Positions 44,862 to 62,862 of a DNA stretch of 64,000 nucleotides are shown here, piece by piece. A model generated the notes under the pieces. The model was not told the DNA's origin. It saw nothing but the letters and a program-made list of their open reading frames with translations, and ran no database searches. The stretch covers positions 288,001 to 352,000 of the forward strand of contig CAVSIV010000006.1 of NCBI GenBank assembly GCA_963728205.1, written 5' to 3'. The translations under genes and the position numbers were made by a program. Every line of letters starts with the position of its first letter. The first letter of the stretch is position 1. Source of the stretch: an uncultured Chloroflexia bacterium (GTDB taxonomy: Bacteria; Chloroflexota; Dehalococcoidia; UBA2979).

Positions 44862-46127
44862 GTGGTCGTGGCCGTCCGTCGATTGCGCCTCATGCTGGTG
44901 GCTCTGGTCGCTCTGTCTGGGGCTGTCCTCGTTGCCCCTGCCCCGAGTAGCCGGGCATCGGCACGCATCGTGGATCTCGGGCCGGCCGCCCGCTATCCGG
45001 CGGGATCGGTCGCCTTGTTCAGCGTAGCGGAAGACGGTAGCGGGCTCGTAGAGGCCCCCGCACGTTCCCAGACGGCTGTGTGGAACGGGAAGCTTGACGG
45101 TTGCCCGCCCGATCCGGTCGTCGGGATCCCGTTCGCGCTTGTGCGCCTGACGGACGGCTCGTTGATCGCACTGTCCACGATCAGCACGCATGGCCGCGCG
45201 CTCGTGCCGTGGGTCTCGGACTACGAGCGGTTCGGACGTGCGGGATGGTTCGTGGAACCCTGCCTCCTGGACACGTACGACGTGGACGGCACCCGCGTAT
45301 ATGGGCCGGCCGCGCGGAACTTGGATCGCTACGCGGTGGAGGTGAGGGACGGGCGGGTGCTCGTCGATCTCGGCGCCATGACGCGCGGCGAAGCGATTCC
45401 GGGGCGCAGCCGGTACGGAGGCACCACGTATGGCCCTGTGGCGGAGTATCCAACGGCCACGCCTCAGGCAGCTGCAACGGCGTCGCCTGAGGCCGCGCTT
45501 CCGGACTCAGGGGCAACGAAGCCCGTCGACTACTGGTCGTTGACGCCCTCCGGACAGCAGGCGCTCCGCCGTGCGCACCCCGGCGCCTTCCTCGCGCGCC
45601 TGGCGGCCCAGCCTGGAATGGTGCTCCACGTGCGGGAGACCGTGACCGAGGCGACGCCAGGAGTACGCACTACCTACGACTCCTTCGCGCGCATCGACGG
45701 TGACCGCGTAGTGGCCGTGCTCGTGCGGAGACTCGACGCGGTCGGACGCGTCATCGACGAGCAGATCCAGGTCGCCCGGAACACTCGGCTGCCGGACGGA
45801 CACGTCATCACCACGCATCCGCTTCCCACGATCACGGGACTACTGCCTGCGATCGCGCCGGAGTTCGCAAGGACGATGTTTGCGATGCATGAGACCGGCT
45901 CGGCTGCTCAACCGGTGCGCACACTTTTTCTCGAGTCACCGCCAAGCGCCAAGTTTCGTCGTGAGCTGGATATCGACGCGTCGAGTCACGTCGTCGTTGG
46001 ATACCGCACCTTCAGAGTCGATCGCGGTCAGAGAGTCCTTCTCACCTCTCGGACCACGGAGTTTGAGTGGGTACCGGCGCGAAACGCCCCCGCGGAACTG
46101 CCCGCAACGCACTCCATGGGGGGCTAG
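44862..46127 (+). CDS. Exported Rieske-fold protein lacking Fe-S ligands, with extra C-terminal domain
   Basis: ALSTISTHGRALVPW...WFVEPCLLDTYDVDGTRVYGPAARNLDRY. Confidence 0.7.
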   Translation: MVVAVRRLRLMLVALVALSGAVLVAPAPSSRASARIVDLGPAARYPAGSVALFSVAEDGSGLVEAPARSQTAVWNGKLDGCPPDPVVGIPFALVRLTDGSLIALSTISTHGRALVPWVSDYERFGRAGWFVEPCLLDTYDVDGTRVYGPAARNLDRYAVEVRDGRVLVDLGAMTRGEAIPGRSRYGGTTYGPVAEYPTATPQAAATASPEAALPDSGATKPVDYWSLTPSGQQALRRAHPGAFLARLAAQPGMVLHVRETVTEATPGVRTTYDSFARIDGDRVVAVLVRRLDAVGRVIDEQIQVARNTRLPDGHVITTHPLPTITGLLPAIAPEFARTMFAMHETGSAAQPVRTLFLESPPSAKFRRELDIDASSHVVVGYRTFRVDRGQRVLLTSRTTEFEWVPARNAPAELPATHSMGG

Positions 46128-46313
46128 GGACGCGGGCGATGCGAACGCTCGGCATAGCGGGATGTGGTGGCCGGGAGTGCAGGGAGATCTCTACATCACG
46201 ACCGAGCAACAACTGGATGATCAGCGGCACGCGCGGCGGACGCTGCCACGTCTGTCGCGCGCCGTCGCGTGGTCGCCGTCGCGAAATGGCGATGCGGGCG
46301 GTGGGCTCGCGTG

Positions 46314-46826
46314 ATGACGATGTCTCTCCGGCGGGCGTCTGCCCTCGCACTCGCCGTGGGCGTTGCACTGGCCGCCGCGATCGCAACGGTCGTGCTCCTC
46401 GTCCCGCGCGCGCCGCAAGTCGTCGTCGTCCCAAGCGCCGGCGGCAACGGTCTCACGGTGCGGCTCTTCTACGTCGACGATGCGGGAAGCGTGATCGCAG
46501 GGGGCTGGCCGCCCGCGCCGAGCGACCGCCCCGCCCGATCGTTCTACCTCGTTGAGAATCACGGAGAGGTTCACGCGCTCGAGGCGGCGGATCCCTCCGG
46601 CACCCGATGCTTCGTGATCTGGAGAGCGGACCTGCAGGCGTCGGAGCGGTTCCCTGGCATCGCAGACGGAGATCGGAAGGGATGGTTCAAGGGGCCGTGC
46701 CAGGGTGAGCTGTACGACCTGGACGGCGCGTGCGTCGCTGGCGTGTGCCGCGCGGGCGATCTCAGAAGCTTCCCGGCCACGCGGTCCGGATCATCGATTC
46801 GGATCGAACTTCCTGCGCCCGGTTGA
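46314..46826 (+). CDS. Membrane-anchored Rieske-fold protein lacking Fe-S ligands
   Basis: FYLV...ALEAADPSGTRCFVIW...WFKGPCQGELYDLDG. Confidence 0.7.
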   Translation: MTMSLRRASALALAVGVALAAAIATVVLLVPRAPQVVVVPSAGGNGLTVRLFYVDDAGSVIAGGWPPAPSDRPARSFYLVENHGEVHALEAADPSGTRCFVIWRADLQASERFPGIADGDRKGWFKGPCQGELYDLDGACVAGVCRAGDLRSFPATRSGSSIRIELPAPG

Positions 46827-47117
46827 ACAGGGCGCGGGTCTTTTCTGCCGCACGCTGCATCATCTCCGCTCGTGCCACCAGATCCCGGTAGCGCCGGCGA
46901 CGAGCACGGCCAGGCCCACGCCACCGCCCCAGAATTCGGCCGCGACGAGCACCTTGCTCGATCCCCGCCGGCCGGTGTCCCGATGTGACGAGTGCACGAC
47001 CGCAGGTTCGGGTTGGGCTGACCGGGCGGAAAGCTGATAGCAGTCGATATGGCGTCGTCGGCTGTGTGGGTGCTCGGGCGTGACAACTCGGAGCTCCGCG
47101 TTGCCCGCTGAGCCGGG

Positions 47118-47148
47118 TGAAGTAATTCGCGTCCGTCGCCGGTAGGCT
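47118..47148 (+). promoter_or_regulatory. Leaderless promoter/operator motif shared with 62257-62287
   Basis: TGAAGTAATTCG-N12-GTAGGCT-N6-ATG. Confidence 0.7.
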
Positions 47149-47154
47149 CGTCGT

Positions 47155-47588
47155 ATGCCTCCGCTCTTCCGCCGCAGCCGCGGCCGCCCACCGCATCCCG
47201 ACATCCTCACTCCGGCGGAGTGGCGGGTCGTCGAGGAGGTGCGCAAGGGGCGCACGAATCCCGAGATTGCCGACGCGCTCGACCTCAGCCCGAACACGGT
47301 GAAGACGCACGTCTCGAGTGCGCTCGCGAAGCTCGGCTTCGCGCATCGCGATCAGCTCGCGACGTGGGAGGGACGGCCCGCGGCCGCCGGGCGTGCGTCC
47401 TCGGCGGCGACGGCGTGGACGGCGCTCCTCGGGCACCGGCGGATTGGCCCGGTGGCCACGGCCGCCGCCGGCGTGCTCGTCGTCGTCGCGGTCGGGATCG
47501 CGGCGCGTGCGGCCGTCGGCTCCGCGCGTGGCGGCGCCGGCGCGGGTGCCGCACGCACGCCCTCGCCGGCGGCGGCGCTCGAGCCGGG
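47155..47588 (+). pseudogene. 5' part (LuxR HTH + TM) of a membrane-anchored regulator interrupted by IS21
   Basis: GRPPHPDILTPAEWRV...TNPEIA...TVKTHVS; TM VATAAAGVLVVVAVGIAA; rejoins 50033-51287 in frame. Confidence 0.85.
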
Positions 47589-47728
47589 TGTCGCGCGGCC
47601 ATGTAAAAGTCCGCGCTGGTGGCCAGCGAAAAGTCCGCACCCTTGAGGTCACGGTGATGCACGAAGCCCCCGGAGCGGGGAATGGTGTGGTTGCGACCCT
47701 GCCATCTCCCCGCTCCGAAGGGGCTCCA

Positions 47729-49189
47729 TTGAAGACCGCGAGGGAGCAGTTGGACATCATCAGCGCGTACGAGCAGCTGGGAAGCTACCGCGCAGTGGCG
47801 GCGCTGTGCGGGACGACCGACAAGACGGTGAAGCGGATCGTCGAGCGCGGGCGCCAGGGCGAGCTCGAGCATCGGGCACGCGGGCAGCGACGACCGCATA
47901 AGACGGACACGGCCAGAGCGCTCGTGGAACAGCGGGTGCGGGAGACCGACGGGCGCATCAGCGCGAAGCGACTGCTCGTGGCGGCGCGCGCCGCCGGCTA
48001 CACAGGGTCGGACCGCAGCTTCCGACGCCTGGTCGCCGAGGCGAAGACGGGCTGGCGGGGCAAGCGGCGGATCTACCGGCCGTGGTTTCCACCGCCCGGT
48101 CAGTACCTCGCCTTCGACTGGGGATCGGAGGGGCGCGTCCACCTCTTCTGCGCCGTGCTGGCGTGGAGCCGCTACCGCTTCGTGCGCATCGCCGCCGACG
48201 AGCGCCAGGCGACGACCCTGCGGCTGCTCGCGGAGTGCTTCGAGGAGTTGGGCGGCGTCCCGGAGCTGGCGCTCACCGATCGCATGGCCTGCCTGCGCGC
48301 CGGGATCGTCGCCAACGTCATGATCCCGCACGCGGAGTACGTCCGCTTCGCCGCGCGTTACGGCTTCCGCCCCGACTTCTGCGAGGCGGCGGACCCCGAG
48401 TCGAAGGGACGAGTCGAGCGGCTCGTCGGCTACGCGAAGAGCGACCTGCTCGTCCCGGCCGGCGGCTGGCCCGATCTCGCCGCGGCGAACCGTGCGGCGC
48501 GCGACTGGTGCGCCGAGGTCAACGCACGTCCGCACGCCGAGACGCGCGAAGCGCCGACGATCCGGCTGGCACGCGAGCGTGAGGCGCTCCGACCGCTGCC
48601 CGCGTCGCGGCCGCTGCTCGCGCGCGGCGAGCGGCGCAAGGTCGACAAGCTGGCGACGGTGCGCTTCGGCTCGGCCCGCTACTCAGTGCCGCACCTCTAC
48701 GCCGGCGGCTTTGTCGAGGTCACCGCCAGCGACGGCGAGGTAGTGATCCGGCGCGACGACGAGGAGATTGCCCGCCATCCCCTGGTCGCCCCCGGTGAGG
48801 CCTCAATCTGCGACGACCACTACGGCGGGCCCCGGTCCGGACCGCGGCGCGCGGTGCGACCGCGCTCGGAGTCCGAGCACCGCTTCCTCGCGCTGGGACC
48901 GGAGGCCGAGCACTTCCTGCGCTCCGCCGCAGCCGCCGGCACGTCCCGCCTGGCGTCGGAGCTCGCGTCCATCGTCGAGCTCGAGCCGGCGTGGGAGCGT
49001 GACGTGCTCGTCCGCGCCCTCGAGCGCGCGACCTCCTTCCGCCGCTTCCGGGCGGCGGACGTGCGCTCCATCCTCGAGGCCGGAGCCGGCGTCGCCCAGC
49101 TCGCCGAGCGCGGCGAGCAGCTCCACCTGGAGCACCTGCCCGCGGTCGCGACGCGCTCGCTCGCCGACTACGCGCTGGTGCGGTCGTGA
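47729..49189 (+). CDS. istA: IS21 transposase
   Basis: PPGQYLAFDW, LAWSRYRF, GGVP...TDRM, PESKGRVE. Confidence 0.93.
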   Translation: MKTAREQLDIISAYEQLGSYRAVAALCGTTDKTVKRIVERGRQGELEHRARGQRRPHKTDTARALVEQRVRETDGRISAKRLLVAARAAGYTGSDRSFRRLVAEAKTGWRGKRRIYRPWFPPPGQYLAFDWGSEGRVHLFCAVLAWSRYRFVRIAADERQATTLRLLAECFEELGGVPELALTDRMACLRAGIVANVMIPHAEYVRFAARYGFRPDFCEAADPESKGRVERLVGYAKSDLLVPAGGWPDLAAANRAARDWCAEVNARPHAETREAPTIRLAREREALRPLPASRPLLARGERRKVDKLATVRFGSARYSVPHLYAGGFVEVTASDGEVVIRRDDEEIARHPLVAPGEASICDDHYGGPRSGPRRAVRPRSESEHRFLALGPEAEHFLRSAAAAGTSRLASELASIVELEPAWERDVLVRALERATSFRRFRAADVRSILEAGAGVAQLAERGEQLHLEHLPAVATRSLADYALVRS

Positions 49190-49963
49190 GCCGCGCGGTC
49201 GCTCCGCTCGCCCCCGACCTCGAGTCCGGGCTGCGCCGGCTCAAGCTCGCGCGCATCCGCGCCGTCGCGCCCGAGGTGCTGCAGACCGCGAAGACCCAGC
49301 GCTGGACGCCAGAGGAGCTGCTGCGCACGCTCGTCGAGGCCGAGTGCGCTGCACGCGACGAGGCCAACCTGCGCACGCGCATGCGCACCGCCGGCTTCCC
49401 CGCGGAGAAGCGGCTCGATGACTTCCGGGTCGACGAGTCGAGCGTGCCCGGCGGCACCTTCGACTACCTCGCTTCGCTGGAGTGGCTGCGCGCCCGCGAG
49501 AACGTCTGCCTGGTCGGTCCCGCCGGCACCGGCAAGTCGCATTTGCTCATCGCGCTCGGGCGCGCCGCCGTCGAGACCGGACACCGCGTGCGCTACTTCG
49601 CCGCTGCGGACCTCGTCGAACAGCTCTACCGCGGCCTCGCCGACAACTCGGTGGCTCGGGTGATCGACGGGCTGCTGCGCGCCGACCTGGTCATCTGCGA
49701 CGAGCTCGGTTTCGCCCCGCTCGACGACGTCGGCACGCAGCTCCTCTTCCGCTTCGTCGCCGCGGCCTACGAGCGGCGCTCACTCGGCGTCGCGAGCCAC
49801 TGGCCCTTCGCATCAGTGGGGACGCTTCCTGCCCGAGCCCACCACCGCCGTCTCGCTGCTCGACCGCCTCCTGCATCACGCCGTCGTCGTCACCACCGAG
49901 GGCGACTCCTTCCGCATGAAAGAGGCGCGAGCGAGAGGAGGACCGACCGTGCGCAGACGCTGA
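49186..49963 (+). CDS. istB: IS21 helper ATPase (frameshift about 49811)
   Basis: GPAGTGKSH, DLVICDELG, YERRS; then WGRFL...LDRLLHH...GDSFR in another frame. Confidence 0.9.
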
Positions 49964-50032
49964 TCAGGACCAGGGGTGCGGACTTTTGGTTGGCCACCAG
50001 TGCGGACTTCGGTTTGGCCATTGACAGCCGGG

Positions 50033-51287
50033 GGCGACCACTGGGATAGCGCCGCTTCAGCCCGGAGAGATCAACACCTTGTCCGCATCGCCGTATCCGT
50101 CGGTGTCCATGAGCGCCGTCAACCGCGCTTTCGATGCATCGTCAGTGGATGCAGAGGGCTCGGCACTGCTCTACGACCGCTCGACGGGTCGCGTCTACGC
50201 AATCCGCGGGGTATGGGCCGTCTGCTTCCTGCCATCCGACGGTCCGCAGCCCCTCGCGCTAGCACTGACCCGCTCCGCCAACGGGAACTCAGCTCCTCAG
50301 CGCGCCCTGCTTCTGCGCCTCGATCCCTTCGAAGCGCGCGTGCTCGACGTCCCGATCCGCCCGGCTGGTCCTTGCCTCGGCGACTCCGGTCGGGGCGAGC
50401 ACGATTGGCAAGATCCGCACGCGATTCCGGTCGAAGTCCGCGGCGACCCGATGACCACCGCCGGGAGGCTGCTCCCAACCGGACGCTATGCCTTCGATCC
50501 CGACACGCTGCGCCTCACCTTTCGACAGGTCGAGCCGCCGTTCAACGCGGGACCGCCGGATGGAACGGTGGTTCATCGCTGGCCCGGCGTGCCCGCTGGT
50601 CCCTCGCTGGAGCTTGTCCGCCGACAGGGCCAGACGGACCTGGTCGATACGAACTCCGGACGCACGGTGCTCGTCGGCGTCGATCGCTACGACATCTCCC
50701 CGGATGGGCGGTTACTCGCGACGTACGCGTCCGCGCGGCCCGACGGCCCCCAGCACAGCTTCATCGTCGCCCTCGCCTCCGGGGCCGCGACCCCGATTGC
50801 CGTCGACATCACCGCCGGATTCGCCTGGTCCCCGGACGGTCGCTGGCTCGCCGGTGTGCGGGACGCCGCAAACGGGGGCGTCGTCGCCGTCCGCGTCGGA
50901 CAGACGTCCGGCCCCTCGATCCAGGTCGGCCCTGTGCTGGGTCCGTACCTCGATCGGTTCGCCCTGGGCTGGACGGCGGCCGGCCGCCTGCTGGTGGGGC
51001 GCGGCGGTGGAACCACAAACGAGACAACGGTCGAGACGATCGACCCGGCGACCGGCCGACTCGACACGCTGACCAGTTTGCTCGGTCCCGCGGTCTTCGT
51101 TGAGTCACCCGACGGCAGCGTCGCAGCGACAGGGGAGCGGGGAGTGGTCGCCTTGTACTCGCTGTCCAACGGAAATCGCATGGTTCCGCAACCGCTCGAA
51201 GGCATGGGTTTGACAGGACGGTTCCTCTTCTCCTGGTCCCCCAGTGGGCGCTGGCTGGCCGCGTTCCTTGACAACGGGCAGTCGTGA
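50033..51287 (+). pseudogene. 3' part (external WD40/TolB-like propeller) of the IS-interrupted LuxR-TM gene
   Basis: SPDGRLLA, WSPDGRWLA, SPDGS, WSPSGRWLA; same frame as 47155 after removing the IS and one TSD. Confidence 0.8.
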
Positions 51288-51519
51288 CGCATCCGCTCGC
51301 TCAATCGGTCTGCCTTTGTGGAGGCTCCTCCAGTGGATCTCTCTCGGGCAGGTGGGTGTTGGATCGGTCGTAGCGGCGGGCCGCGCCAAGGCGCGAGTGC
51401 CGGCGGTTCGCGTGCCGAGCTGCCGATCGCGTCAATAGGTGAAGCTGCGGGCGGCGTCGAGCGCGTCGACATCGCCCGGCGCGAGGCGAACGGCGAGCCT
51501 GTTGCGGTAAGCTCCGGCG

Positions 51520-52095
51520 ATGGCTCGCCGCCTGCGCCTCGGCATCGACTTCGACGGCGTCATTTCCGACACGATCGCCGCGATGATCGACTACGCGTCT
51601 GCCGTGCACGGGATCGACCTCGCGCCTCATGAGTGCCTGGTGCCGGCCGGCCCGGCGCGTCTCGGCGTTGAGGCGTACCAAGCGCTGATCGCGGACGCGC
51701 ACGGCACCGAATACGCACTCGGCATGCCCGCGATCCCAGGCGCGCTCGAGGCAATCGCAGATCATGGCGCGCGGCGCGACGCCGTGATCGTTACGGCCCG
51801 CGGCGGCTCGGCGTTCGACCACACATCGACGTGGCTCGCGCGCGCCGGCCTGCGTGACGTGCTGCAAGACGTCGTGTCGTCTCGCGGCGTGACGAAAGCG
51901 GAAGTGGCGACGCGCCTCGGCCTCGACGTTCTGCTCGACGACGTGCCCGCGAACCCGCAGGACCTGCCACGATCGGTGGTGCCGGCTTCGTGGTCGGCCG
52001 TCTACAACGATGCCCTGCCGGTCGGCCGCCGCTGCGCCGCGTCGAGGGATGGGATGCATTCGCGGCGTTGGTCGCGGACCTGGCGGCCGCTAGCG
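51520..52095 (+). CDS. HAD-superfamily NT5C-like phosphatase (3' end frameshifted)
   Basis: GIDFDGVISD, IVTAR, K...LLDD motifs. Confidence 0.75.
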
Positions 52096-52415
52096 CGCCT
52101 ATCCAGACCGAGAGGCAGAGGCCGCCCTGACACCCGGGCGGTGCGTGGCCCCCGTTCCTGGAGTTCGGCCCGGCCCGCATCGGCATGCCGGGGACGTACA
52201 CACCATCACCGGCGGCCTGTTCCCGTTGCCTGCTCCGATAGGCGCTGACATCCCAGGACGTCGCGATCGCCGAGTTCGGCGCACGTGAAACGGGCGCGAA
52301 TGCGCTCGGGATACTGAGTGTGTCGATTCCCGCCCGCCTTCCCGATCGGCTGCTCTCCTGGGGTCGGCGCGGGGCTTCCGGGCCGGCACTTTCCGCGCCT
52401 ACCGGCCGAGTGCTG

Positions 52416-52949: not shown

Positions 52950-54197
52950 TCAGCGCGCCGGCGACTGCCACTGCGTCTGCCATGACACTCCGCCGTCGGC
53001 TGTGTGCAGGATCGCCGAGCGTCCTGTGAACATTGAACCGACGAGCCAGCCCGACGAAGCCGATCGGAATGCGGCGGCGGCCGGCTGCTCGAGATGCGGC
53101 ACAACCGAAGCGGGCGTGCCGACAACGTCGCCGCCGCGGCTGACCAGGACGAACGAGGTCGTCGGCTTGGTAGCGGCCGGCGACCAGCCGAACAGGACGG
53201 CGCCGCTCGCGTCCAGCGCACTGAAGGGTCCAGCTTCCCCCACGTCGAACCGGGCGGCGGCGTCAGGTTCAGTACAGCCACGCAACGACGCATTACAGAC
53301 CACCGTCTGGAAGCCGCCATCGTCTGCACCGTGGTACAGCCAGTAAGCGCAGGTGCCGGCGGCGCAGTTGCCGCGCGCGAGCGCCCAGACCGCCGTCGAT
53401 CCTGCGCACTGAGTGGAGCGAGCGCGACCGAACGCATCGCCGTTCGCCGGGGTGAACGCCTTCGTCCAGGTCCGTCCGGCGTCATGGCTGCGGTACAGAG
53501 CGGCGCTCTCGGTCATCAGCCACCCGTGGTGCGGGTCGCTGAAGCAAACGGACGCCGGGACCTGCGGCGCCGCGACGCGCTCCCACGTGAGTCCCCCGTC
53601 GGTGCTGTGCGCGAGGAACGAAACGCGGCTATCGCCGCGTTCGATGCCCCAGCCGTCGCTCGCCGAGTCGAAGCCCACCTCCTGCAGAGCCGGCGCCGGC
53701 ATCGGTAGCTCCCGCCAGCAGTCCCCGCCGTCGGACGTGACCAGCAGATGCGCTTTCCCGAGCGCCCAGCCGTGCTCCGCGTCGATGAACCGGACCGCTT
53801 GCAGCGCAGCTGTTCCGCGATACTGCTCGGCCCAATGCGCACCCCCGTCGCGCGTCGTGAGGATGCGCCCCGCACCGACCGCCCACCCGCGCGTGTCGGA
53901 GACGAACAGGATGTCGGCGAGCACCGGTGGGGCCGTCGTATCCGCCGCCGGCGTCGCGGTCGATTCACTCCCTACGCACGCGGTCGTGGAGGCTGCGGTC
54001 GTGGTCGGCGTCGGCACGGCGGTGGGCGTGACAGAGCCGGCGATCGCTGCGCCCGGGGACGCGGAGGCTCCTCCGCTCGCGGTGGTGGCTGGTCCGTGAG
54101 CGCCGCTGCAGGCGGTGAGAATTGGCACCAGGACGAGCGCGGCCACCATGCGCGGGCTGATGGCGATCGCTCTCGATGCGCGGCCACGTCTCAGCAT
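52950..54197 (-). CDS. BNR/Asp-box beta-propeller lipoprotein
   Basis: Lipobox LTAC, TRDGGAHW, TSDGGDCW, STDGGLTW, TADGGVSW. Confidence 0.85.
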   Translation of the reverse strand: MLRRGRASRAIAISPRMVAALVLVPILTACSGAHGPATTASGGASASPGAAIAGSVTPTAVPTPTTTAASTTACVGSESTATPAADTTAPPVLADILFVSDTRGWAVGAGRILTTRDGGAHWAEQYRGTAALQAVRFIDAEHGWALGKAHLLVTSDGGDCWRELPMPAPALQEVGFDSASDGWGIERGDSRVSFLAHSTDGGLTWERVAAPQVPASVCFSDPHHGWLMTESAALYRSHDAGRTWTKAFTPANGDAFGRARSTQCAGSTAVWALARGNCAAGTCAYWLYHGADDGGFQTVVCNASLRGCTEPDAAARFDVGEAGPFSALDASGAVLFGWSPAATKPTTSFVLVSRGGDVVGTPASVVPHLEQPAAAAFRSASSGWLVGSMFTGRSAILHTADGGVSWQTQWQSPAR

Positions 54198-54407
54198 GAG
54201 CGCTCCGAATCGAATCAGCCTGCCGCCGATGACAGTGGGTGCCCGACGGTGGCCAGAAAGCCAGACTGCCCGACCTCGGGCTCGAGCACCAGATCTCACG
54301 ACGTCGGCCCCACGCGGGCGTCATGCCAGAGCCGGAGCCGGGGCGAGCCGTACCGCGTCCTGGACGCACTACGGGACCAGGACGCTCAGCGCTCTCACCG
54401 CTGCCGG

Positions 54408-55870: not shown

Positions 55871-55893
55871 TGTGGAATTCCACATAGTGCCTC
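55862..55893. repeat. Perfect 32-bp palindrome at IS junction
   Basis: gaggcactatgtggaattccacatagtgcctc equals its own reverse complement. Confidence 0.9.
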
Positions 55894-55974
55894 TTATGCG
55901 GCTTCCGGGAATATGCGGCACCGGGGCGAGGGCGGAAGGGGGGGCTCTTCGGCGAGCTCCAGACGACATTCGGG

Positions 55975-56345
55975 GTGGAGGTAGCACGCCTCGCGGAGCT
56001 GGCCGTCGACGCCCTCGGCGAGCGCGACGGCCTGGCCACGCTCGAGCGGTCGATCCGCACCGCGATGGCGAAGTTGGGGGCGACACCACCTTCCTCGAAG
56101 GGCTGCTCGCGGCCGACCGCGGACACCGCGGTCAGCGCATCGATTGCGGAGCAGGCCACCAGGCAAGAGTTCGTCGGCTACCGTCCTCGGACCCTCGACA
56201 CCGTGCTCGGGCCGATCACGCTGCGACGCGCCTACTACCGCTGTAGGGAATGCGCGCACGGCGTGGTGCCGCGCGACGAGGCGCTCGGCGTCACGAGCGC
56301 CTCGCTCTCTCCTGGGCTGCGTGCGATGGTGGCGCCGGTGGGGCG
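55975..56345 (+). pseudogene. ISKra4/UPF0236-family transposase fragment
   Basis: CGAGH...TVLGPITLRRAYYRCRECAHGVVPRDEALG...SLSPG; frameshifted and truncated. Confidence 0.75.
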
Positions 56346-56369
56346 AGAGTATGCCCTCGCCACGCGCCC

Positions 56370-57620
56370 CTACTGGTCCGGAGCGAGTAACAGTCGCACA
56401 TCCTCGCCCTTAGCTACCACCTGGCCTCGAACCGTCACTGAGATGGGGAGTCTCGCTCCGGTTTGATCGACGCACCGCCCGGGAAAGGTCTCGCCGGAAT
56501 AGACACGTCTGCTAAGCAGCTCCTGACCGTGGCAGGTGAACCCTACGCCGCCATCTCCGTGCCAGTGCGCCAGGAGCGATGGCGCATCGCTGACGGCGGT
56601 GCTATCTCCTGTCTTTACGTCTAACACCGACCATGTAGCTGCAGGAGAGGCATTGCCGCAATTCGTCCCCTGATCTCCCGTCGGACTCCGTCCAACGGTC
56701 CGAGAGTATAGGAGCCCAGAGTCGGTAGGCGCCCACTCCCAAGCAGTGATGTTATCTGTAGCAGATGTTATCGCAGTGCGGACGACGCCATCTCGCGCAC
56801 CAACGATTTCCATTCGATGCGACTCAACATCGTCACAGACGTGTTGACTGATTGCTTGCTCAGCGATTAGTTGCCCATCCCAAGATGGAACAGCATATCC
56901 GCTGGTCTCTATGTACTTATCCACTGTGCCGTGCTGTACAATGCCGAAGTCCCGCGGCCCTTCTCCTGATCCCGACGAGAACGCCACCAGCACGGAACCA
57001 TCATTTAACATCGCAATAGGTGAAGACATCGGCCGACCGCGCTTCGCGGCAGCTGCTGGTACTCCTTGGAGAACGATACTAGCAGCACCACTTGAAAGGT
57101 CGACCGCTGCAATCGACGATCTGTGAGGACATGGCGTCGCGCATTTCGCGGATTCATCCACAATCATCGCAACGTTCCCAGTCGTGACAAAAGAAGAAAT
57201 CACATGTCTATTGTTAACCGAAAATATCGCGCCGAGCTTCTGACCGTCGAGCCGATATTTGACCAAGGATTGCCCAGTATTAACGACCAGGAATTCGCGT
57301 GTGCTCGCTAGTCCAGCAATCCGCTCGCCCACCTTGCCGAGGCTGAAAGTCACACTGTTCGAAGGGTGGGAGACGGACGCCGTCTTTATCTCGTAGGTCG
57401 GCCATGTTCTTCCGTTGGCGACTTGGGAAGATATTTGCGACATGACGACAATCCGCTCAGACTCCGGAATTGCCTTCAGCGGATCGCCACGATCGCAGGA
57501 CATGATTATGAAAGCAAGAAGCAACAACGTCGCCGGTCCCACCAAGCGCATTTGGCGATATCTCTCACTCGGTTGTTCGAGCTGGCGCAGGGCAAAGGCA
57601 CCCTGCGCCAGCCCAGACAA
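56370..57620 (-). CDS. Beta-propeller-like lipoprotein, low-GC homolog of the 35365-37177 C-terminal domain
   Basis: IIMSC lipobox; GRTWPTYEI, WEWAPTD, WHG...FTCHG shared motifs. Confidence 0.7.
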   Translation of the reverse strand: MSGLAQGAFALRQLEQPSERYRQMRLVGPATLLLLAFIIMSCDRGDPLKAIPESERIVVMSQISSQVANGRTWPTYEIKTASVSHPSNSVTFSLGKVGERIAGLASTREFLVVNTGQSLVKYRLDGQKLGAIFSVNNRHVISSFVTTGNVAMIVDESAKCATPCPHRSSIAAVDLSSGAASIVLQGVPAAAAKRGRPMSSPIAMLNDGSVLVAFSSGSGEGPRDFGIVQHGTVDKYIETSGYAVPSWDGQLIAEQAISQHVCDDVESHRMEIVGARDGVVRTAITSATDNITAWEWAPTDSGLLYSRTVGRSPTGDQGTNCGNASPAATWSVLDVKTGDSTAVSDAPSLLAHWHGDGGVGFTCHGQELLSRRVYSGETFPGRCVDQTGARLPISVTVRGQVVAKGEDVRLLLAPDQ

Positions 57621-57643
57621 CCTACCACACGCTGTCCCGGTCG

Positions 57644-58345
57644 CTAGAACTCTAGCCGATGGAGCCAGGTACTACTGCCGATTGGCTGCTTTCCACTCGG
57701 AACGGTGCAGTTCGGGTATGGATAAGCGGTATAGCCGCTTTCGCAGTACGGGATTCCGGTTCCATTCGTGTGCTGGTGATTGGTCGGGTGGTTCAGTTGA
57801 TCCCCATCTTGATGCAAGTGCGGGTGATCCCACAAGTTGGGCGCGCAGAGCGGTTGCGTGGACGCAACAGTACCGAGGTACGTACTCTGGTTGCCGGTGC
57901 CGATGGACCAGCTGCTTCCGACGACGCCAGTGGCGTTATCGATGTGGGTGTAGCTCTCCTGCCCAAGGTACGTACCGAACGTGGGATCGTAGAACTCGAC
58001 ATAGAGGCCGGTGCATCCAGAGCCATTGTCGAAGGCGTCCGCATCGACCCCGCCACTGATCCCGTACGTCTTCAGGTACACCGACATGCCGGCATCTGCA
58101 TCAGCCGTGCTTCCCCAGTTCAGGTCGAGCCCTGACGTACCACTTGGCCGGGCATGCCACCCATAGTGGTAGACACCTGAGGTCGCGCTGAGCCCGTAGT
58201 AGATTGCTACTGACTTACCTGTGCTGTGGGCTGATACTTGCGGCGAATTAGCCGCTAGTCCTCCACCTACGATCAAGGCGAATCCGAGCAGTGATGCTAG
58301 CGCCAAGCTCCTAACCCGCCGGTCTTTGAGCACTTTGGTTGTCAC
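57644..58345 (-). CDS. Secreted protein, divergent M23 peptidase-like
   Basis: Signal peptide; H...GLDL, YTHI, YLGTV, HPHLH. Confidence 0.55.
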   Translation of the reverse strand: MTTKVLKDRRVRSLALASLLGFALIVGGGLAANSPQVSAHSTGKSVAIYYGLSATSGVYHYGWHARPSGTSGLDLNWGSTADADAGMSVYLKTYGISGGVDADAFDNGSGCTGLYVEFYDPTFGTYLGQESYTHIDNATGVVGSSWSIGTGNQSTYLGTVASTQPLCAPNLWDHPHLHQDGDQLNHPTNHQHTNGTGIPYCESGYTAYPYPNCTVPSGKQPIGSSTWLHRLEF

Positions 58346-58953
58346 TACTTCACCTCCAGGTCGGTCGTAAGTGCGACGACGGAAGAACTGTCGGGGAAGT
58401 TGAAGGCAGTCAGGATAGTTTCGATCCCGCCGTCCACCCATCGAAGATGGCGCGGATTGGTCTGAGGCGCCGCGATCTTTGGCTCAATGAGTACAGCTGG
58501 TCCGCGTGGAGTCTGGATGGCCTCCGTTCGGGTCCACTTCTGGTCGGCGAGTACGACATCCAATGGCAACTCAGGCGGCCTCCACCTCCGAACGCGGACC
58601 GTCCGCGTGCCGTTACTGTAGGTTGACGTGATGTCGACTGCGCCAGAGGTTGCTCTAGCGCCGACCGCGTCGACAAGCGGTAGCGATCCGACTTGCCCCG
58701 GCACGAGGCCAGGAAGTAACGTTTGTGTCTCCGCAATACCGGCGGCTTGCTGCCACGACAACCGCGCCGTTCCTGGTGGGACCGCGGGCTGAAGCGGAGA
58801 GCCAGGCGGGAGCAGCCGGTAGGCTCCGTGAAGGCGAGGTGCTGATTGCTGGGCGCCGCCCGTCCCCTGCGTAAGGATGAAAACTCCGATTGCAAGGCTG
58901 ACGGCGAGGAGCGCCGGCAGGAACAGTCGGAGATTCTTCATGCGTAACATCAC
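58345..58953 (-). CDS. Exported hypothetical protein
   Basis: N-terminal hydrophobic helix; stop/start overlap with the next gene; RBS gaggag. Confidence 0.65.
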   Translation of the reverse strand: MMLRMKNLRLFLPALLAVSLAIGVFILTQGTGGAQQSAPRLHGAYRLLPPGSPLQPAVPPGTARLSWQQAAGIAETQTLLPGLVPGQVGSLPLVDAVGARATSGAVDITSTYSNGTRTVRVRRWRPPELPLDVVLADQKWTRTEAIQTPRGPAVLIEPKIAAPQTNPRHLRWVDGGIETILTAFNFPDSSSVVALTTDLEVK

Positions 58954-59751
58954 TGCTTCTCCTCTGCATGGACAGTGCAGGTGAGCGACGGTTCTGGAAT
59001 CCGACGACCGTCGGCGCGCTCAGCATTAACGTCGGCAGGCGACGGGCGGCGCCATTCGGAAGCCATGCCTCCCCCTAATCGGCTCCGGGATTCTGCAATC
59101 TGGCCGGTTCCCTCTGACATCGCTCTTCTTCGACGGGAGAGTCCGTCTTCTCGGCTAGGGCCGTCCACCCCACTCTTGCTGATATTCATCGTCACTTCAG
59201 ATGAATTGCTTCGTGATCAGCGGGGTTGACACGGAGTGCGATATACGATGATGGCGACGCCGACGCGGTCGTCGCCGTCGGGCCCCGGAAGCATGGGGTT
59301 GGCGCGACAAGGTGCGCTGAGCCAGATGGAAGACAGCGACTAGGAGCACCGACCGCATACCCGGAAGACGGCCATTGCGAGGGGCCCACCGATGAGACCT
59401 TGATTGCTCAACGCAATCAAACCGCGAGGCAGACCTCAACTGAGCGAGAATAGGGGCAACGTGAGCCCTATCGGTCGCGGTCGTTCTGCATGATGCACAA
59501 CAAGCTTGAGCCCGCGTGATGGGATGGTCGAGCGCGCCTTAGCACCCGAACCTGCGGCGGCGGGGCCTGGGGCCAGCCCCCGCAGGCTCGCTCGACGACG
59601 TCCCGCCCGGCCACCCTATCGCGCAGGGAGGCGATCAGCACGGCCCGCGCTCGACTGGATGCCTGCGCCCGCCCGAGCGTGGCGCGCAGAGTGATTCACG
59701 ACACGCTAAGGGGCGAGCGATTCGCAGCAGGCCGAAGAGGGAGATGTGCGG

Positions 59752-60060
59752 TCATTTTCCAATCCGCAAGTCTACTTGCTCAGCCAACGTACGGACATCC
59801 GAATGCGGAGGGCATCCAGCGAAAATGCAGCACCCAGCGTGATTAGCACACCAGAGTGCCAGTTGCTGCCCATTGTGCAGACCGGTCTTTCCGCGAATTC
59901 GCGTGAGGTGAGATCGCACCGTTGGGAGGGAGATTGCGAGATCAGATGCGATTCGAGTGGGTACGTGGCCCACGTAGAATAGCGCGGCTACTTCCGATTC
60001 TCTCCGCGTAAGCTCAACATGATCCGGCTGGCATCTGTCGGACGGTCGTGGAAGCATCAT
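59752..60060 (-). CDS. Small LuxR-family HTH protein
   Basis: LTRRESEV...IASDLAISLPTVRSHLTRIRGKTG; Cys-rich tail. Confidence 0.75.
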   Translation of the reverse strand: MMLPRPSDRCQPDHVELTRRESEVAALFYVGHVPTRIASDLAISLPTVRSHLTRIRGKTGLHNGQQLALWCANHAGCCIFAGCPPHSDVRTLAEQVDLRIGK

Positions 60061-60273
60061 GGGAACCCATTTCTGCCGGCCCGTTCTTGCCGCAGTTGAT
60101 CTCCTTCCTGCGCGCGCTCGGAACGCGCCGGACTGGGGCGCGGCCGATCTGAAACGTACGCACGCGCATACGTCAACATTATGCATGCCTATATAACGTT
60201 GTTGCGGCGATGTCCGGGTACGGTCGGAGGCGGCACAGTCCGGGGCTAGAACAGCTGGGCTAGCGCGCTTTAG

Positions 60274-60518
60274 GTAAGCGATCATGGTGACCGTTCCGAG
60301 CGGGAAGTCCGAAACCGGACCCGGCGTCGAACAGTCCGCTGTGACCGCCGCCACAGGCGGCGATGGTCACGACCACGGCAGGGAGCGCCACCGCGAGCGT
60401 GAGCCGCATCCACCACGGCCGTCGCCGGTGCGCGCTGGCCGGGTCCGACCCTCGCGGAACGGTCGTAGGCGGCGGCTGGATCATGACAGCCGCCGGGGCG
60501 TCAGACGGAAGACGACGA
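60274..60518 (-). repeat. Truncated duplicate of the 5' end of the 62347-62862 Rieske-like gene (direct repeat of 62728-62958)
   Basis: About 240 bp near-identical with a few indels. Confidence 0.9.
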
Positions 60519-60603
60519 GGCGACCGCGACCGGCCCGCGGTCCTCCCGGCGTCCGTCGCAGGGCCATGCGCGCACCGCGCGGACAGGCATTGGGACGCGC
60601 CAG

Positions 60604-60966
60604 CTACGCGCGCTCGACCAGCCGGGCGAGGTCCCCCGGATCGAACGGCTTGAAGAGCGTGCGCGCCCCGAGCGCCGCGGTCGCGGCGGCGACCTTGCGC
60701 GAGGTCGTCATCGCCACCACCCGCAAGGCCTGGTCTCCGCTGGTCTCGTGCAGCCGACGGAGGTCATCAAGCCCCTCGCCGCTCGGAGCCGGGGGGTCGA
60801 GGAACAGGATGGTGGGGCCGAAGCAGTCGACCTCCGCGCACACGCCCGCCGGCGCCAGCACCGCGCGGACGTGGTGTCCCGCCTCCTCGAGATCCAGGCG
60901 GAGGAGGTCGGCGATGGCCCGGTCGTGCTCGATGATCAGCACGCGCTCGGCGCGCGAGGTCGCCAT
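60604..60966 (-). CDS. Single-domain response regulator receiver (atypical)
   Basis: VLIIEHD, ILFLD, VVAMT, LFKPFD. Confidence 0.8.
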   Translation of the reverse strand: MATSRAERVLIIEHDRAIADLLRLDLEEAGHHVRAVLAPAGVCAEVDCFGPTILFLDPPAPSGEGLDDLRRLHETSGDQALRVVAMTTSRKVAAATAALGARTLFKPFDPGDLARLVERA

Positions 60967-61135
60967 GCCCGTTTCCGTCCTCCGCCATGACGGCAGTTCG
61001 CAGGCGCTCCCCGAGCGGCCGACCCACCGCGCCGGGCGCCCGCAGCATATGCGCTGCGAATCTGCTCCGAGCGCTGCACGGCCACGGGCGGCCCGTGGGA
61101 CCGGCACCGACCGGCCTCGCGGCCCGCAGCTCGCC

Positions 61136-61465
61136 TCACGAGTTCGCGGCCTCGAGGTAGCCGTGCACGGCGGCCGCCACGCGGGCGAAGGTGTCCGGCG
61201 CCTCCCACCCGTTGGAGAGGATCGCCAGCACGTAGGTGCCGAAGGGCGCCTTGACGATGGCGACGTCATGCGCGGCGCCCGCGTAGTCGCCGGTCTTGTT
61301 TCCGACGACGCTGCCGTCGTCGGGGATGCCGCTGGGGATGCGCGAGCGGATGCGCTGCTGCGCGAGCAGGTCGAACACCTGGGCGGCCACCGCGGGCGTC
61401 GGCTTCCCGCGCGCGATCGCCTCGAGCACGCGCGCCATGTCCGCCGCCGTGGTCGGCAGGGCCCA
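61136..61465 (-). pseudogene. C-terminal fragment of class A beta-lactamase-like serine hydrolase
   Basis: TTAADMARVL, NKTG, HDVAIV, YVLAILS; SxxK and SDN regions missing. Confidence 0.8.
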
Positions 61466-62249
61466 GGATACCCGGCGTGGCGATACACGGCTCGCCACGT
61501 ATCCCGCAGTACGTCCCGTGGGCGAGCACCCGCAGCGCGATTACGAGTCCGTCGACCACGACCGGCACATCGCGCCAGGGGAGCGTGAGCGATGCGACGG
61601 CTACTCCGGACACCGGAGTAGCAGAGACGGTGACTCGCGGATCAGTTCCAAATCGGTACGCGCGGAAGTCGACCCGCGTCGCGCTGGCCGGCACGACCGC
61701 GCTGACCTTGATCTGAACGCTGCCGACGACGTGGACCGTTCCACCCTTTGGGTCGGCGTGCGAATCGACGTAGGACGGCGTGAGCAGGCGGAGCTGCGCG
61801 GTCGCGGTGTCCCCGGCGGGCGCCGTCCTCGTGGGGGACGGGGACGCGGTGCGGCCCGTAGCGCCGGGCTGCACCGCTGCCCCGCGAAACGCGGCGATCA
61901 CGACAAGTGCCGCGAGCCCGGTTGCGACGGCGCCGCCAACGAGACGCGCAACTCGGGGCACCCCGAGCCCCCGCTCCATCAGCCAGCCGCCGAGCGCGAA
62001 GCCTCGCGTGCGCCTTGCCGAGGACGCCGGTGTTCCGGCCCACGCCGCGAGCGCCAATCGGTCCGAGCAGTCGAGCTTCGCGAGCATGCTCGAGACATGC
62101 GTCTTGATGGTAGGAACGGTGAGCCCGAGCCGCTCCGCGATCTCGGGATTCGAGAGTCCGTCGCGGACACAGTCGAGCACGCGCCACTCGGCGGGGGTCA
62201 GGACGTCGGGGTGCGGCGGCCGTCCACGAGCGTGTCGTCTCCAGGGCAT
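61266..62249 (-). CDS. Membrane-anchored LuxR-HTH protein (HTH-TM-linker-beta-rich domain); 3' end probably deleted at about 61465
   Basis: GRPPHPDVLTPAEWRV...SNPEIA...TIKTHVS; TM LVGGAVATGLAALVVIAAF. Confidence 0.8.
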   Translation of the reverse strand: MPWRRHARGRPPHPDVLTPAEWRVLDCVRDGLSNPEIAERLGLTVPTIKTHVSSMLAKLDCSDRLALAAWAGTPASSARRTRGFALGGWLMERGLGVPRVARLVGGAVATGLAALVVIAAFRGAAVQPGATGRTASPSPTRTAPAGDTATAQLRLLTPSYVDSHADPKGGTVHVVGSVQIKVSAVVPASATRVDFRAYRFGTDPRVTVSATPVSGVAVASLTLPWRDVPVVVDGLVIALRVLAHGTYCGIRGEPCIATPGILGPADHGGGHGARARGDRAREADARGGRPGVRPARAAAHPLAHPQRHPRRRQRRRKQDRRLRGRRA

Positions 62250-62256
62250 GAGCGCC

Positions 62257-62287
62257 AGCCTACGAGCGCCCGCGACGAATTACCTCA
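62257..62287 (-). promoter_or_regulatory. Leaderless promoter/operator motif shared with 47118-47148
   Basis: TGAGGTAATTCG-N12-GTAGGCT-N7-ATG. Confidence 0.7.
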
Positions 62288-62346
62288 TACCGTGCTGCCA
62301 CCACGAGCGCGAGACCGATGAAGGCGGGCTGCCGCGCGTTGGCATC

Positions 62347-62862
62347 TCAGTGGCTGCAATCGTCCCGACTGCCGGGGATCAGCGCTGCCGGAGAGAGCGT
62401 CACGATGACGTGCTCGTCGCGGACGCGGACGGGATAGCCGTCGAGGCCGCGCGGCGACGGTCCGAAGACCCGGCACCCCGTGAGCTCGTAGGTCGACCCG
62501 CTGCAGGGGTCACGGAACCAGCCCGTCCCGGGCTCGTCGTCGAATTTGAAGTCAGGGCGCCAGGGCACCGTGCAGTGCCGTGCCGGATGCGAGTCCCTCG
62601 CCGAGAGGGCGAGGATCGTCCCATCCTCGAGATGCACGACGTGGAAGACGATCGTTGCGGGCGACAGATTGGCCAGCGGGACGGGGTACCCGCCGGCGGC
62701 GCTCCGCCCGACTTCGTGACCGTCGGCGTACGCGATCGTGGTGACCGTTCCGAGCGGGAAGTCCGAAACGGGACCGGCGTCGAACAGTCCGCTGTGACCG
62801 CCGCCACAGGCGGCGATGGTCACGACCACGGCAGGGAGCGCCACCGCGAGCGTGAGCCGCAT
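62347..62862 (-). CDS. Rieske-fold lipoprotein lacking most Fe-S ligands
   Basis: IAAC lipobox; ALSARDSHPARHCTVPW...WFRDPCSGSTY...GPSPRGLD. Confidence 0.8.
   Translation of the reverse strand: MRLTLAVALPAVVVTIAACGGGHSGLFDAGPVSDFPLGTVTTIAYADGHEVGRSAAGGYPVPLANLSPATIVFHVVHLEDGTILALSARDSHPARHCTVPWRPDFKFDDEPGTGWFRDPCSGSTYELTGCRVFGPSPRGLDGYPVRVRDEHVIVTLSPAALIPGSRDDCSH

Follow-up and report, generated by a model that had tools for sequence, protein, structure and literature searches.

The window analyzed here is a stretch of 64,000 nucleotides (nt) from the genome of an uncultured Chloroflexia bacterium (contig CAVSIV010000006.1, positions 288,001 to 352,000), and it contains three genes, P0001, P0003 and P0004 (Table 1), that code for putatively exported Rieske-like proteins in which ligands of the [2Fe-2S] cluster have been replaced. 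The G+C content of the 64-kb window is ~70%, and an open-frame reading based on the G+C content at third codon positions (GC3) backs the three genes, whose frames are all open and full length, with coding-type GC3 values of 0.76-0.86 and intact N-terminal signals. The translation of P0001 carries ARDSHPARHCTVPW and then GWFRDPCSGSTYELTGCRVFGPSPRGLD, that of P0003 carries STISTHGRALVPW and then GWFVEPCLLDTYDVDGTRVYGPAARNLD, and that of P0004 carries ADPSGTRCFVIW and then GWFKGPCQGELYDLDGACVAGVCRAGDL. In pairwise BLASTP comparisons P0001 matched P0003 (5e-21) and P0004 (3e-10), and P0003 matched P0004 (2e-6), and by this measure the three genes are paralogues. When the N termini were read by eye, P0001 showed an IAAC lipobox and P0003 and P0004 showed hydrophobic helices; this reading alone predicts the export of the three proteins, as an earlier note on the same DNA had claimed.

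Canonical Rieske proteins contain two boxes, C-x-H-x-G-C and C-x-C-H, in which the first Cys and the His of each bind the [2Fe-2S] cluster, and the remaining two Cys form a disulfide that bridges the loops and are not ligands. The earlier note had located altered versions of these boxes at 62347, 46314 and 44862, and they are found there in the translations. In the order Cys ligand 1, His ligand 1, disulfide Cys 1, Cys ligand 2, disulfide Cys 2 and His ligand 2, the pattern is D-H-C-D-C-S in P0001, S-H-A-E-C-L in P0003 and D-S-C-G-C-Q in P0004, i.e. the four ligand positions read D/H/D/S, S/H/E/L and D/S/G/Q, respectively. Both boxes are incomplete in all three proteins, with D, S and D at the Cys position and H, H and S at the His position of box I, and with D, E and G at the Cys position and S, L and Q at the His position of box II. 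Cys is kept at both disulfide positions in P0001 (Cys97 and Cys120) and in P0004, and P0003 has Ala and Cys at these positions. The same six positions were then read in 172 sequences (the rows of A1, a 29-row alignment that includes the three window proteins, together with the 150 top matches of a full HMMER scan), which were aligned to the A1 profile with hmmalign. Cys ligand 1 is D in 101 sequences, S in 26 and C in 17; His 1 is H in 104, R in 24 and G in 11; disulfide Cys 1 is C in 150; Cys ligand 2 is D in 86, N in 30, E in 18 and C in 16; disulfide Cys 2 is C in 158; and His 2 is H in 87, S in 32 and G in 18. The canonical ligand set is present in just 16 of the 172, both disulfide-position Cys in 150, and there are 95 different six-position patterns, the commonest being DHCNCH (21), CHCCCH (15) and DHCDCH (9). 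Taken together, the profile alignment and the alignment of the 172 sequences bear out what the earlier note had stated, namely, that both ligand Cys and the second His are missing in all three window proteins and that the disulfide Cys are mostly kept. They also indicate that both cluster-ligating Cys are replaced in the Cys-less clade described below, mostly by Asp, Asn, Glu or Ser, and, given this loss of ligands, the window proteins are predicted to be unable to bind a [2Fe-2S] cluster.

In some proteins Asp acts as a ligand of an Fe-S cluster, and two Cys still lie near the site in P0001 and P0004; nevertheless, an Fe-S cluster bound through non-Cys ligands (Asp, His) or through the remaining Cys can be given almost no weight. 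Those Cys are the disulfide pair of canonical Rieske proteins, the residues left to act as ligands would be the first His and two Asp in P0001, the first His and one Glu in P0003 and one Asp only in P0004, and Asn, Gly, Ser and Leu all occur at ligand positions across the clade. Moreover, the twin-arginine motif, which is expected for the export of cofactor-loaded proteins, is mostly gone.

Table 1. Features of the window and related loci elsewhere in the source genome (G000; contigs C2, C4 and C6). HTH, helix-turn-helix; TM, transmembrane.
Feature	Position	Strand	Description
P0001	62347-62862	-	171 amino acids; lipoprotein-type signal (IAAC) and Rieske-like domain, predicted cluster-free
P0003	44862-46127	+	421 amino acids; N-terminal hydrophobic helix, Rieske-like domain, predicted cluster-free (residues ~35-177), and orphan C-terminal region
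P0004	46269-46826 (open reading frame; ATG at 46314)	+	~170 amino acids from the ATG; TM anchor and most divergent Rieske-like domain, predicted cluster-free
P0181	47155-47596	+	5' part of LuxR-HTH-TM regulator gene, directly downstream of P0004, cut by IS21
IS21-family element	47597-50050 (outer limits approximate)	+	istA (rve / Mu-transpos_C_2) and istB (IstB_IS21), by Pfam
P0182	50025-51287	+	Open frame after IS21, PD40 beta-propeller repeat
P0032	61266-62249	-	LuxR-HTH-TM-ectodomain regulator gene; start 97 nt downstream of P0001
Second frame of P0032 gene region	61136-61540	-	C-terminal half of beta-lactamase-like domain; GC3 0.92
Truncated duplicate of P0001 upstream region and first codons	60274-60518	-	245 nt, 94-100% identical, direct repeat of 62728-62958
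Open reading frames of lower-GC segment	56370-57620, 57644-58441, 58345-58953	-	Without Pfam match
UPF0236 transposase-like fragment	55975-56466		Edge of lower-GC segment
Cys-less genes outside the window	C4:206-1462 (L007); C6:1544133-1545398 (L008); C4:100803-101531		
Cytochrome b loci	C2:40233; C2:253288; C6:1216976; C6:1826714		Outside the window

None of the three window proteins reaches the score of the Pfam families (PF00355/PF13806) or of the NCBIfam PetC/QcrA models. Pfam Rieske_2 matched P0001 at 1.4e-4 (22.2 bits) and P0003 at 0.17 (12.3 bits), both under the 27-bit cut-off, P0004 gave zero Rieske-like Pfam matches, and the PetC-type NCBIfam matches to P0001 and P0003 were weak (24.7 bits versus a cut-off of 250). 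Of the 202 candidates in a word-indexed search with P0001, 26 other proteins reached E<=0.001; nearly all are metagenomic, and some of these relatives are named 'Rieske Fe-S protein' or 'cytochrome b6-f complex iron-sulfur subunit' in their source. The E-values of the window proteins against A1 are circular, since they are rows of that alignment, and were not used as evidence of homology. The A1 consensus is D.H..GCTVPWRPDF...GWFRDPC.GSTYD..G.RVFGPSPR.LDRY, and when its profile was compared with the PDB it matched 38 distinct sequences at E<=0.01, all of them Rieske proteins, with Kuenenia stuttgartiensis kuste4569 (9rk4; 1.2e-13) and kustd1480 (9rk3; 3.2e-11) and a Chlorobaculum tepidum protein (8hn2; 6.8e-10) at the top; Synechocystis PetC3 (5cxm) is also among the best-matching solved domains. 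In the alignments with 9rk4 and 9rk3, the first Cys of CTHLGC lies over the Asp of the family, the His over His and the last Cys over Cys, and CPCHGS lies over DPC.GS; the ligand residues of these two structures thus stand opposite D/N and variable residues in the consensus of the family.

Structure predictions, made for P0001 and P0003 among the three window proteins, agreed with these matches. The AlphaFold2 (AF2) model of P0001 obtained from A1 had a predicted local distance difference test score (pLDDT) of 87.2 and a predicted template modeling score of 0.80, and its top Foldseek matches in the PDB were all Rieske proteins (8hn2, 5e-6; 9rk4, 1e-5). The AF2 model of P0003 shows a helix at residues 2-24 and pLDDT values >90 at residues 36-175, and when residues 34-177 were compared by VIA-align with 48,161 chains the highest scores (Z 13.9, 12.8 and 11.9) were all to Rieske domains, the top match being 9rk4 (Z 13.9, 104 aligned residues, root mean square deviation 2.2). 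The models thus predict a Rieske beta-sandwich fold in P0001 and P0003 with confidence, as the earlier note had supposed, and P0004 is tied to this fold by its BLASTP homology to P0001. Over all these comparisons, solved bc/b6f-type Rieske domains match the family at E-values of 1.2e-13 to 2.2e-8, Foldseek values of 5e-6 to 3e-3 and Z scores of 11.5-13.9; they are all titled iron-sulfur proteins, and their identity to the family is only 22-29%.

A precedent for a cluster-free Rieske fold is NirD, whose fold is Rieske-like and whose cluster is absent in many bacteria; NirD is the cytoplasmic partner of NirB and has neither signal peptide nor anchor. The NirD-type family (Rieske_2, PF13806; 4aiv, 3c0d) is the only one in Pfam that P0001 and P0003 touch, below its cut-off. 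However, NirD folds stand lower in the structural lists (rank 30 for P0001 with Foldseek and Z 8.0 for P0003), and, unlike NirD, the window proteins are closer to bc/b6f-type Rieske domains in both sequence and predicted structure, carry putative export signals and have Cys at bc-type disulfide positions. A nitrite reductase domain was not found among the window neighbors scanned.

The family is large and occurs almost only in metagenome-assembled genomes (MAGs) of Chloroflexota. The full HMMER scan of 1.84 billion representatives with the A1 profile gave 4928 matches at E<=1e-3, 1334 at <=1e-10 and 143 at <=1e-30, and the pattern GWFRDPCx[GL] was confirmed at 28 loci in 185,579 species genomes, 27 of them in MAGs titled Chloroflexota, Chloroflexi, Chloroflexia or Dehalococcoidia and one in a MAG titled beta-proteobacterial. 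A tree of 173 rows and 116 columns (IQ-TREE in 'quick' mode, with Shimodaira-Hasegawa-like approximate likelihood ratio test (SH-aLRT) support only) was constructed after leaving out rows with <110 aligned core residues and P0037 and P0167, which are database copies of window proteins. In this tree all 144 of the 144 Cys-less rows, including the three window proteins, fall on one side of a branch with an SH-aLRT of 98, canonical rows of the same frame fall outside it, and the clade sits beside the canonical Rieske subunit of the Rieske/cytochrome b operon of the phylum. The tree was rooted on four b6f-like rows that do not make up one side of a branch, the alignment gave one outgroup row the wrong label 'degenerate', and most inner forks are undecided because the alignment is short. 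A single loss of the ligand Cys is possible because all Cys-less rows lie in one clade, and the tree is consistent with a loss at the base of that clade, which would be the simplest reading. P0001 groups with lipobox-bearing and often long forms (P0053, P0056, P0063, P0076 and P0101), and P0003 pairs with P0109 (support 99); the end branches of both are ordinary (0.48 and 0.55, respectively), and that of P0004 is so long (2.47) that its placement is unsure.

Both by sequence and in the tree, the nearest relatives of the window proteins are the Chloroflexota Rieske subunits, represented in the source genome at C6:1218483-1219151 and C1:187578-188351. The two groups appear to share the N-terminal anchor, Cys at the disulfide positions, the extracytoplasmic location and the frame TVPWRP.F.F...GW[FY]R.PC.GSTY..G.RVFGP.PR..D. 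In contrast, CPHLGC and CPCHGS with all four ligands, a mostly twin-arginine signal and, in one case, a cytochrome b neighbor are found with the canonical subunit and not with the window proteins. In 27 of 30 genomes of relatives A1 found a match, and the 27 best matches, as read, were all canonical Rieske proteins, 18 of which have a twin-arginine leader of the SRRRFIRASFW type. A search of open-access full texts, a coverage outside which subscription journals lie, returned zero descriptions of Cys-less exported Rieske proteins, and passages of PMC4122944 likewise yielded none.

In three orthologue pairs of >60% identity, taken from 24 coding sequences that all come from loci of other genomes and do not include the window genes, the Nei-Gojobori ratio of nonsynonymous to synonymous substitutions (dN/dS) was 0.19, 0.17 and 0.26. 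With such values the family is not in neutral decay, and purifying selection acts on it, a point that the earlier note had raised for the homologues. When the columns of 144 Cys-less rows were compared with those of 22 canonical rows, the positions conserved in the Cys-less clade were largely a subset of the canonical ones, the shared positions being W101, G114-W-F-R117, P119-C120, G122, T124, G129, G134-P135, R138 and D141 (P0001 numbering). Asp occupies the two former Cys positions in 58-63% of the Cys-less rows, and apart from these Asp only G81 (0.71), R142 (0.77) and V145 (0.80) are more conserved in the Cys-less than in the canonical rows. As judged from these alignments, the former ligand positions are variable and the scaffold is conserved across the family. 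The window copies rank among the more degenerate members of the Cys-less family. P0004 lacks the GP..R.LD motif, including P135 and R138, and R117 is replaced by V in P0003 and by K in P0004. With crude regular expressions, a strict twin-arginine motif was detected in 9 of 16 canonical versus 11 of 142 Cys-less rows, and a lipobox within the first 40 residues in 0 of 16 versus 13 of 142. The apparent loss of the twin-arginine signal fits export without a preloaded cofactor and is not proof of it.

In the source genome (4.1 Mb, six contigs, 89% complete), a six-frame census of the open reading frames with the A1 profile gave five canonical Rieske genes against six that are Cys-less. The canonical paralogues read CPHLGCTVPWRPEFEF and then GWYRCPCHGSTYT (CPHLGC...CPCHGS) within a TVPWRP..GW[FY]R frame that the Cys-less proteins also have. 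Each of the four cytochrome b matches of the genome adjoins a canonical Rieske gene and none is inside the window, in agreement with the earlier statement that no cytochrome b gene is nearby; one of these loci is a cyt b(N)-cyt b(C)-Rieske-cytochrome c/sulfocyanin operon, whose Rieske gene is the one at C6:1218483-1219151. These observations bear on the quite improbable alternative that the window proteins are redox-dead subunits that dock to cytochrome b, by way of the homologous TM anchor and the tip loops, as a structural, assembly or regulatory stand-in. The alignment of the family profile with canonical subunits starts at the TM anchor, behind which both groups carry a [x][x][W/Y]P motif (in 72 of 142 rows of the Cys-less group and in 7 of 16 of the canonical one), the conserved residues of the Cys-less proteins are, as said above, largely a subset of the canonical ones, and the whole P0003 model, including the helix, can be laid on b6f/bc1 Rieske chains with Z scores of 9.3-9.6. 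The presence of four cytochrome b loci in the genome also speaks for docking, but each already has a canonical Rieske gene of its own, none of the six Cys-less genes adjoins cytochrome b, and no cytochrome b was seen among the scanned neighbors of 26 loci of other genomes. Furthermore, one subclade has a lipoprotein signal in place of the anchor, and the fusions to HTH-TM regions, propellers and a lyase described below do not fit a complex subunit. Two canonical Rieske genes, at C1:187578-188351 (between HtrA-like proteases) and at C4:36-785, are without a cytochrome b neighbor.

The genes that do lie next to the Cys-less ones in this genome are those of LuxR-type regulators. Among 31 GerE matches in the genome, seven are of an N-terminal LuxR-HTH type (E<1e-20 with a profile made from sequences of this study), and three of the seven are directly downstream of Cys-less genes: P0181 follows P0004, P0032 follows P0001, and the gene at L043:1543-3027 follows L007. 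The last pair belongs to a cassette outside the window in which a canonical Rieske gene (L006), the Cys-less L007 and an intact gene for a 494-residue LuxR-HTH-TM protein succeed one another. By our own rough estimate, one such gene would occur by chance within 500 nt downstream of a given locus with a probability of ~4e-4. P0181 has a GerE match at window positions 47200-47367 (HTH profile E=7.6e-37), and its N-terminal HTH is followed by a TM helix; in P0032, GerE covers residues 15-71 and an Ig-like stretch is present. Outside the window, the N-terminal LuxR-HTH genes of this type are at C6:401134, 403369, 471628 and 1605769 and at C4:1537.

The same two elements are joined in one polypeptide in some relatives. 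P0066 consists of a GerE HTH, a TM helix, a Rieske-like domain and a C-terminal domain, and its HTH is 51% identical over 63 residues to that of P0032 and 53% identical to that of the L043 regulator. Moreover, P0004 and the Rieske-like domain of P0066 have in common an extra GAC..G.C motif (BLASTP 7e-12). A search with P0066 gave 353 proteins at E<=1e-5; the HTH was present in 116 of the 120 listed, and five proteins among these 120 (P0066 and P0184-P0187), in two subclades, combine the HTH with a Cys-less Rieske-like domain. The window proteins are encoded by separate genes and are not fused to an HTH, the fusion being found, among the proteins listed, in those five relatives. According to precomputed Pfam annotations, the outer parts of relatives of P0066 include PD40/TolB-like, BNR/Ycf48-like, signal peptidase, sortase, hydrolase and cupredoxin-like domains. 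In this large class of proteins with an HTH, a single TM helix and a variable outside domain (P0184-P0301), most rows are without an organism name, and where one is given it is mostly Dehalococcoidia. Other fusions of the Rieske-like domain are to HAAS and a TM helix (P0074), to LVIVD repeats forming a propeller (P0045), to a PD40 propeller (P0068) and to a polysaccharide lyase domain (P0090); HAAS, which has a signalling role, is the only informative name among the cluster members. A search with A1 for longer forms, restricted to 738-2105 residues, found zero and is weak, fused forms of 247-1037 residues being known by other routes.

On the basis of this adjacency and of the fusions we tentatively favor, at somewhat less than an even chance, that the cluster-free Rieske domain has been reused as an extracytoplasmic binding/sensor or adaptor module tied to membrane-tethered LuxR-type regulators. 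In the clade beside the Rieske/cytochrome b subunit, the Rieske beta-fold, predicted to be without cluster, has kept the scaffold and the two former cluster loops, usually with both disulfide-position Cys, and the four positions at the tip have become variable. In some organisms the domain forms the outside part of a single-pass LuxR/CsgD-type regulator, and in the source genome it is made as a separate, putatively anchored protein whose gene is directly upstream of the regulator gene; such a protein might bind a ligand, or the ectodomain of the regulator, through the former cluster tip, and this binding might modulate the regulator. The arrangement would resemble that of ToxR/ToxS, in which the regulator crosses the membrane once, with its HTH in the cytoplasm and another domain outside, and is encoded beside a small anchored outside protein. 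Unlike in ToxR/ToxS, an N-terminal HTH of the LuxR/GerE type is present and the partner has a Rieske fold, and the likeness would thus be one of working and not of membership. The more specific proposal of a new class of extracytoplasmic sensors derived from a respiratory subunit, is doubtful. In it the former cluster pocket, a pair of loops joined by the disulfide whose variable His/Asp residues at the tip would once have faced the quinol site, would respond outside the cell to a metal, to a small redox-active molecule or to the thiol-disulfide state and signal to LuxR-type factors, fused or separately anchored. The earlier note had suggested a fold reused for binding, metal or redox sensing; the fusions and the neighborhood lend indirect support to its binding or sensing part, and a metal pattern common to the family was not recovered among the 95 patterns.

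Several observations weigh against a role of the domain beside LuxR-type regulators. The link is confined to part of the family, since an N-terminal LuxR HTH adjoined a family member at 0 of 20 loci fetched from relatives, and P0066 is a singleton from a 2.4-kb contig. Pfam scans of the neighbors at 26 loci of other genomes (134 proteins) showed as the commonest context an enoyl-CoA hydratase, a small open reading frame, a second enoyl-CoA hydratase, one or two family members and an AMP-binding acyl-CoA synthetase, and an enoyl-CoA hydratase/acyl-CoA synthetase context was present at ~10 of the 26 as well as at L008 of the source genome. The three cassettes may be duplicates of a common ancestral cassette and hence not fully independent, and the differences between their ectodomains make a docking mode common to all three unlikely (a PD40 propeller, an Ig-like plus beta-lactamase-like one, and a third that is unassigned). 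A shared new site is not evident either, given that only the three modest scaffold gains at G81, R142 and V145 were seen. To these must be added that P0003 is without one of the two disulfide-position Cys, that P0004 has a very long branch and that both regulator genes of the window look disrupted.

The ~525-residue gene found downstream at loci of other genomes had been suspected to code for a cytochrome oxidase or cytochrome b, and Pfam identified its product as the AMP-binding acyl-CoA synthetase. A second context, consisting of an ammonium transporter, Trans_reg_C, a family member, a GerE-glyoxalase gene and VanZ, was found at four loci that form one synteny group, with the GerE-glyoxalase gene next to or near the family member in all four. 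Family members were adjacent to one another at 8 of 28 loci of other genomes and at 6 of 20 loci from relatives; Cys-less genes in adjacent pairs or triplets, like P0003 and P0004, were noted at L013, L022, L024, L027, L029, L030, L037 and L039 and at L077-L082.

A further alternative, which we consider rather improbable, is that two His together with Asp/Asn form a mononuclear metal site (Fe, Cu, Zn or Mn) and that the protein is a metal-binding protein, chaperone or sensor. The commonest Cys-less patterns, DHCNCH and DHCDCH (21 and 9 sequences), keep both His with Asp/Asn, the class D/E-H-D/E/N-H amounts to 33 of the 172 sequences, and the lipoprotein subclade of P0001 is mostly D-H-D/N-H. 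In agreement with such a site, HMA-domain genes come after two long lipoprotein forms of this subclade (L017:8167-11340 and L032:8176-8772), and in L017 they are joined by a gene for a heavy-metal P-type ATPase, which likewise comes after the family member. However, a third locus of the subclade in another genome (L012) is without a metal gene, and the three HMA matches of the source genome are neither in nor beside the window. Across the family the first His is kept in 104 and the second in 87 of the 172 sequences, 44 have neither, and the set is incomplete in each of the three window proteins. With 95 patterns at the six positions, no one metal site is common to the family.

The surroundings of the three genes raised the question of whether the window copies are decaying relics, i.e. 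recent duplicates in a rearranging island. An IS21-family element lies between P0181 and P0182; it is bounded by inverted repeats of 39 nt (47607-47645 and 49971-50009), and short direct repeats occur close to both of its ends. P0182 can be read as the extracytoplasmic 3' part of the P0181 gene because its first residues resemble the post-TM linker of P0032, and it is probably the rest of the regulator gene split by the element. The P0032 frame loses sense near 61470-61490, and the second frame of this region matches positions 134-213/214 of Pfam Beta-lactamase2, which has a class-A-like beta-lactamase/transpeptidase fold; it may be either a frameshifted or a remnant ectodomain. Since both adjacent regulator genes look disrupted, P0181 by IS21 and P0032 by a frameshift, the window modules may be idle or decaying. 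The frame break could also be an assembly error in a metagenome-assembled draft genome. No RNA run was among the listed sequencing runs. Three soil-metagenome DNA runs of one study contained only 0.00-0.12 of the sampled words; their contigs were short and of low depth, and among those listed none was seen across the 61480 frame break or the IS21 junctions, so that they provide no check of the assembly and are silent on expression.

The truncated duplicate of the 5' end of P0001 ends where a lower-GC segment begins (56000-60270; G+C ~0.61, 0.608 over 56-60 kb, versus ~0.70), and this segment is probably foreign or mobile DNA. The open frame of the duplicate runs on and has a further GerE-type HTH at its end (59752-60354). 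PADLOC and PHROGs gave zero matches to the open reading frames of the lower-GC insert and to uncharacterized neighbors. The duplicate abutting this insert and the two broken regulator genes would fit relics, as would the long branch of P0004 and its lost GP..R.LD motif, the lack of one disulfide Cys in P0003 and the C-terminal region of P0003, of which 227 residues used as query found a relative in 0 of 300 other genomes of the class. In addition, three genomes of the same genus gave no profile match scoring as high as P0001 or P0003, the best match, the only one read in each, being the canonical subunit. Nevertheless, decay of the window copies is unlikely: the three frames are full length with intact N-terminal signals and coding-type GC3, the branch lengths of P0001 and P0003 are ordinary, the family is under purifying selection, and the break in P0032 is possibly an artifact of assembly.

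Apart from its possible link to regulators, the clade offers a clean example from nature of radiation (143 clusters at E<=1e-30) after an electron-transfer domain had lost its cofactor, in a manner consistent with one loss, and it should be useful for asking what stabilizes a Rieske fold without cluster and how cofactor pockets become binding sites. Metabolic reconstructions from Chloroflexota MAGs can over-count respiratory Rieske subunits owing to automatic names such as 'Rieske Fe-S protein' or 'cytochrome b6-f iron-sulfur subunit', an error that is removed by inspecting the motifs for the two ligand Cys. If the link to LuxR-type regulators is true, it would open a way to study how signals are sensed in a phylum of which few members are in culture and genetically tractable, and it would draw attention to a large and little-described group of N-terminal LuxR-HTH-TM regulators with swappable outside domains.

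With regard to the remaining parts of the three proteins and of the window, a prediction of the complex between P0003 (residues 30-180) and P0004 (residues 50-185) gave a score of 0.12 and a mark of 0.32, which speaks neither for nor against binding. The matches of P0001 in an Atlas search scored 0.78-0.80 and count as no more than leads. For its part, the C-terminal region of P0003 had zero matches in a Pfam scan and low AF2 confidence, its fold matches by VIA-align (Z 5.5-8.3) were to beta-barrels only, and the Atlas search yielded leads below 0.9 only, one of them a cluster in which 21% of the members carry MucB_RseB. The large open reading frames at 39873-41849 and 42002-43606, both on the reverse strand, had zero family matches. 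Finally, genes for beta-propeller proteins (PD40; BNR/Ycf48-like) at 37174-38895 (reverse strand), 50079-51287 (forward strand) and 52950-54299 (reverse strand) share one 20-kb stretch with the Rieske-like genes.

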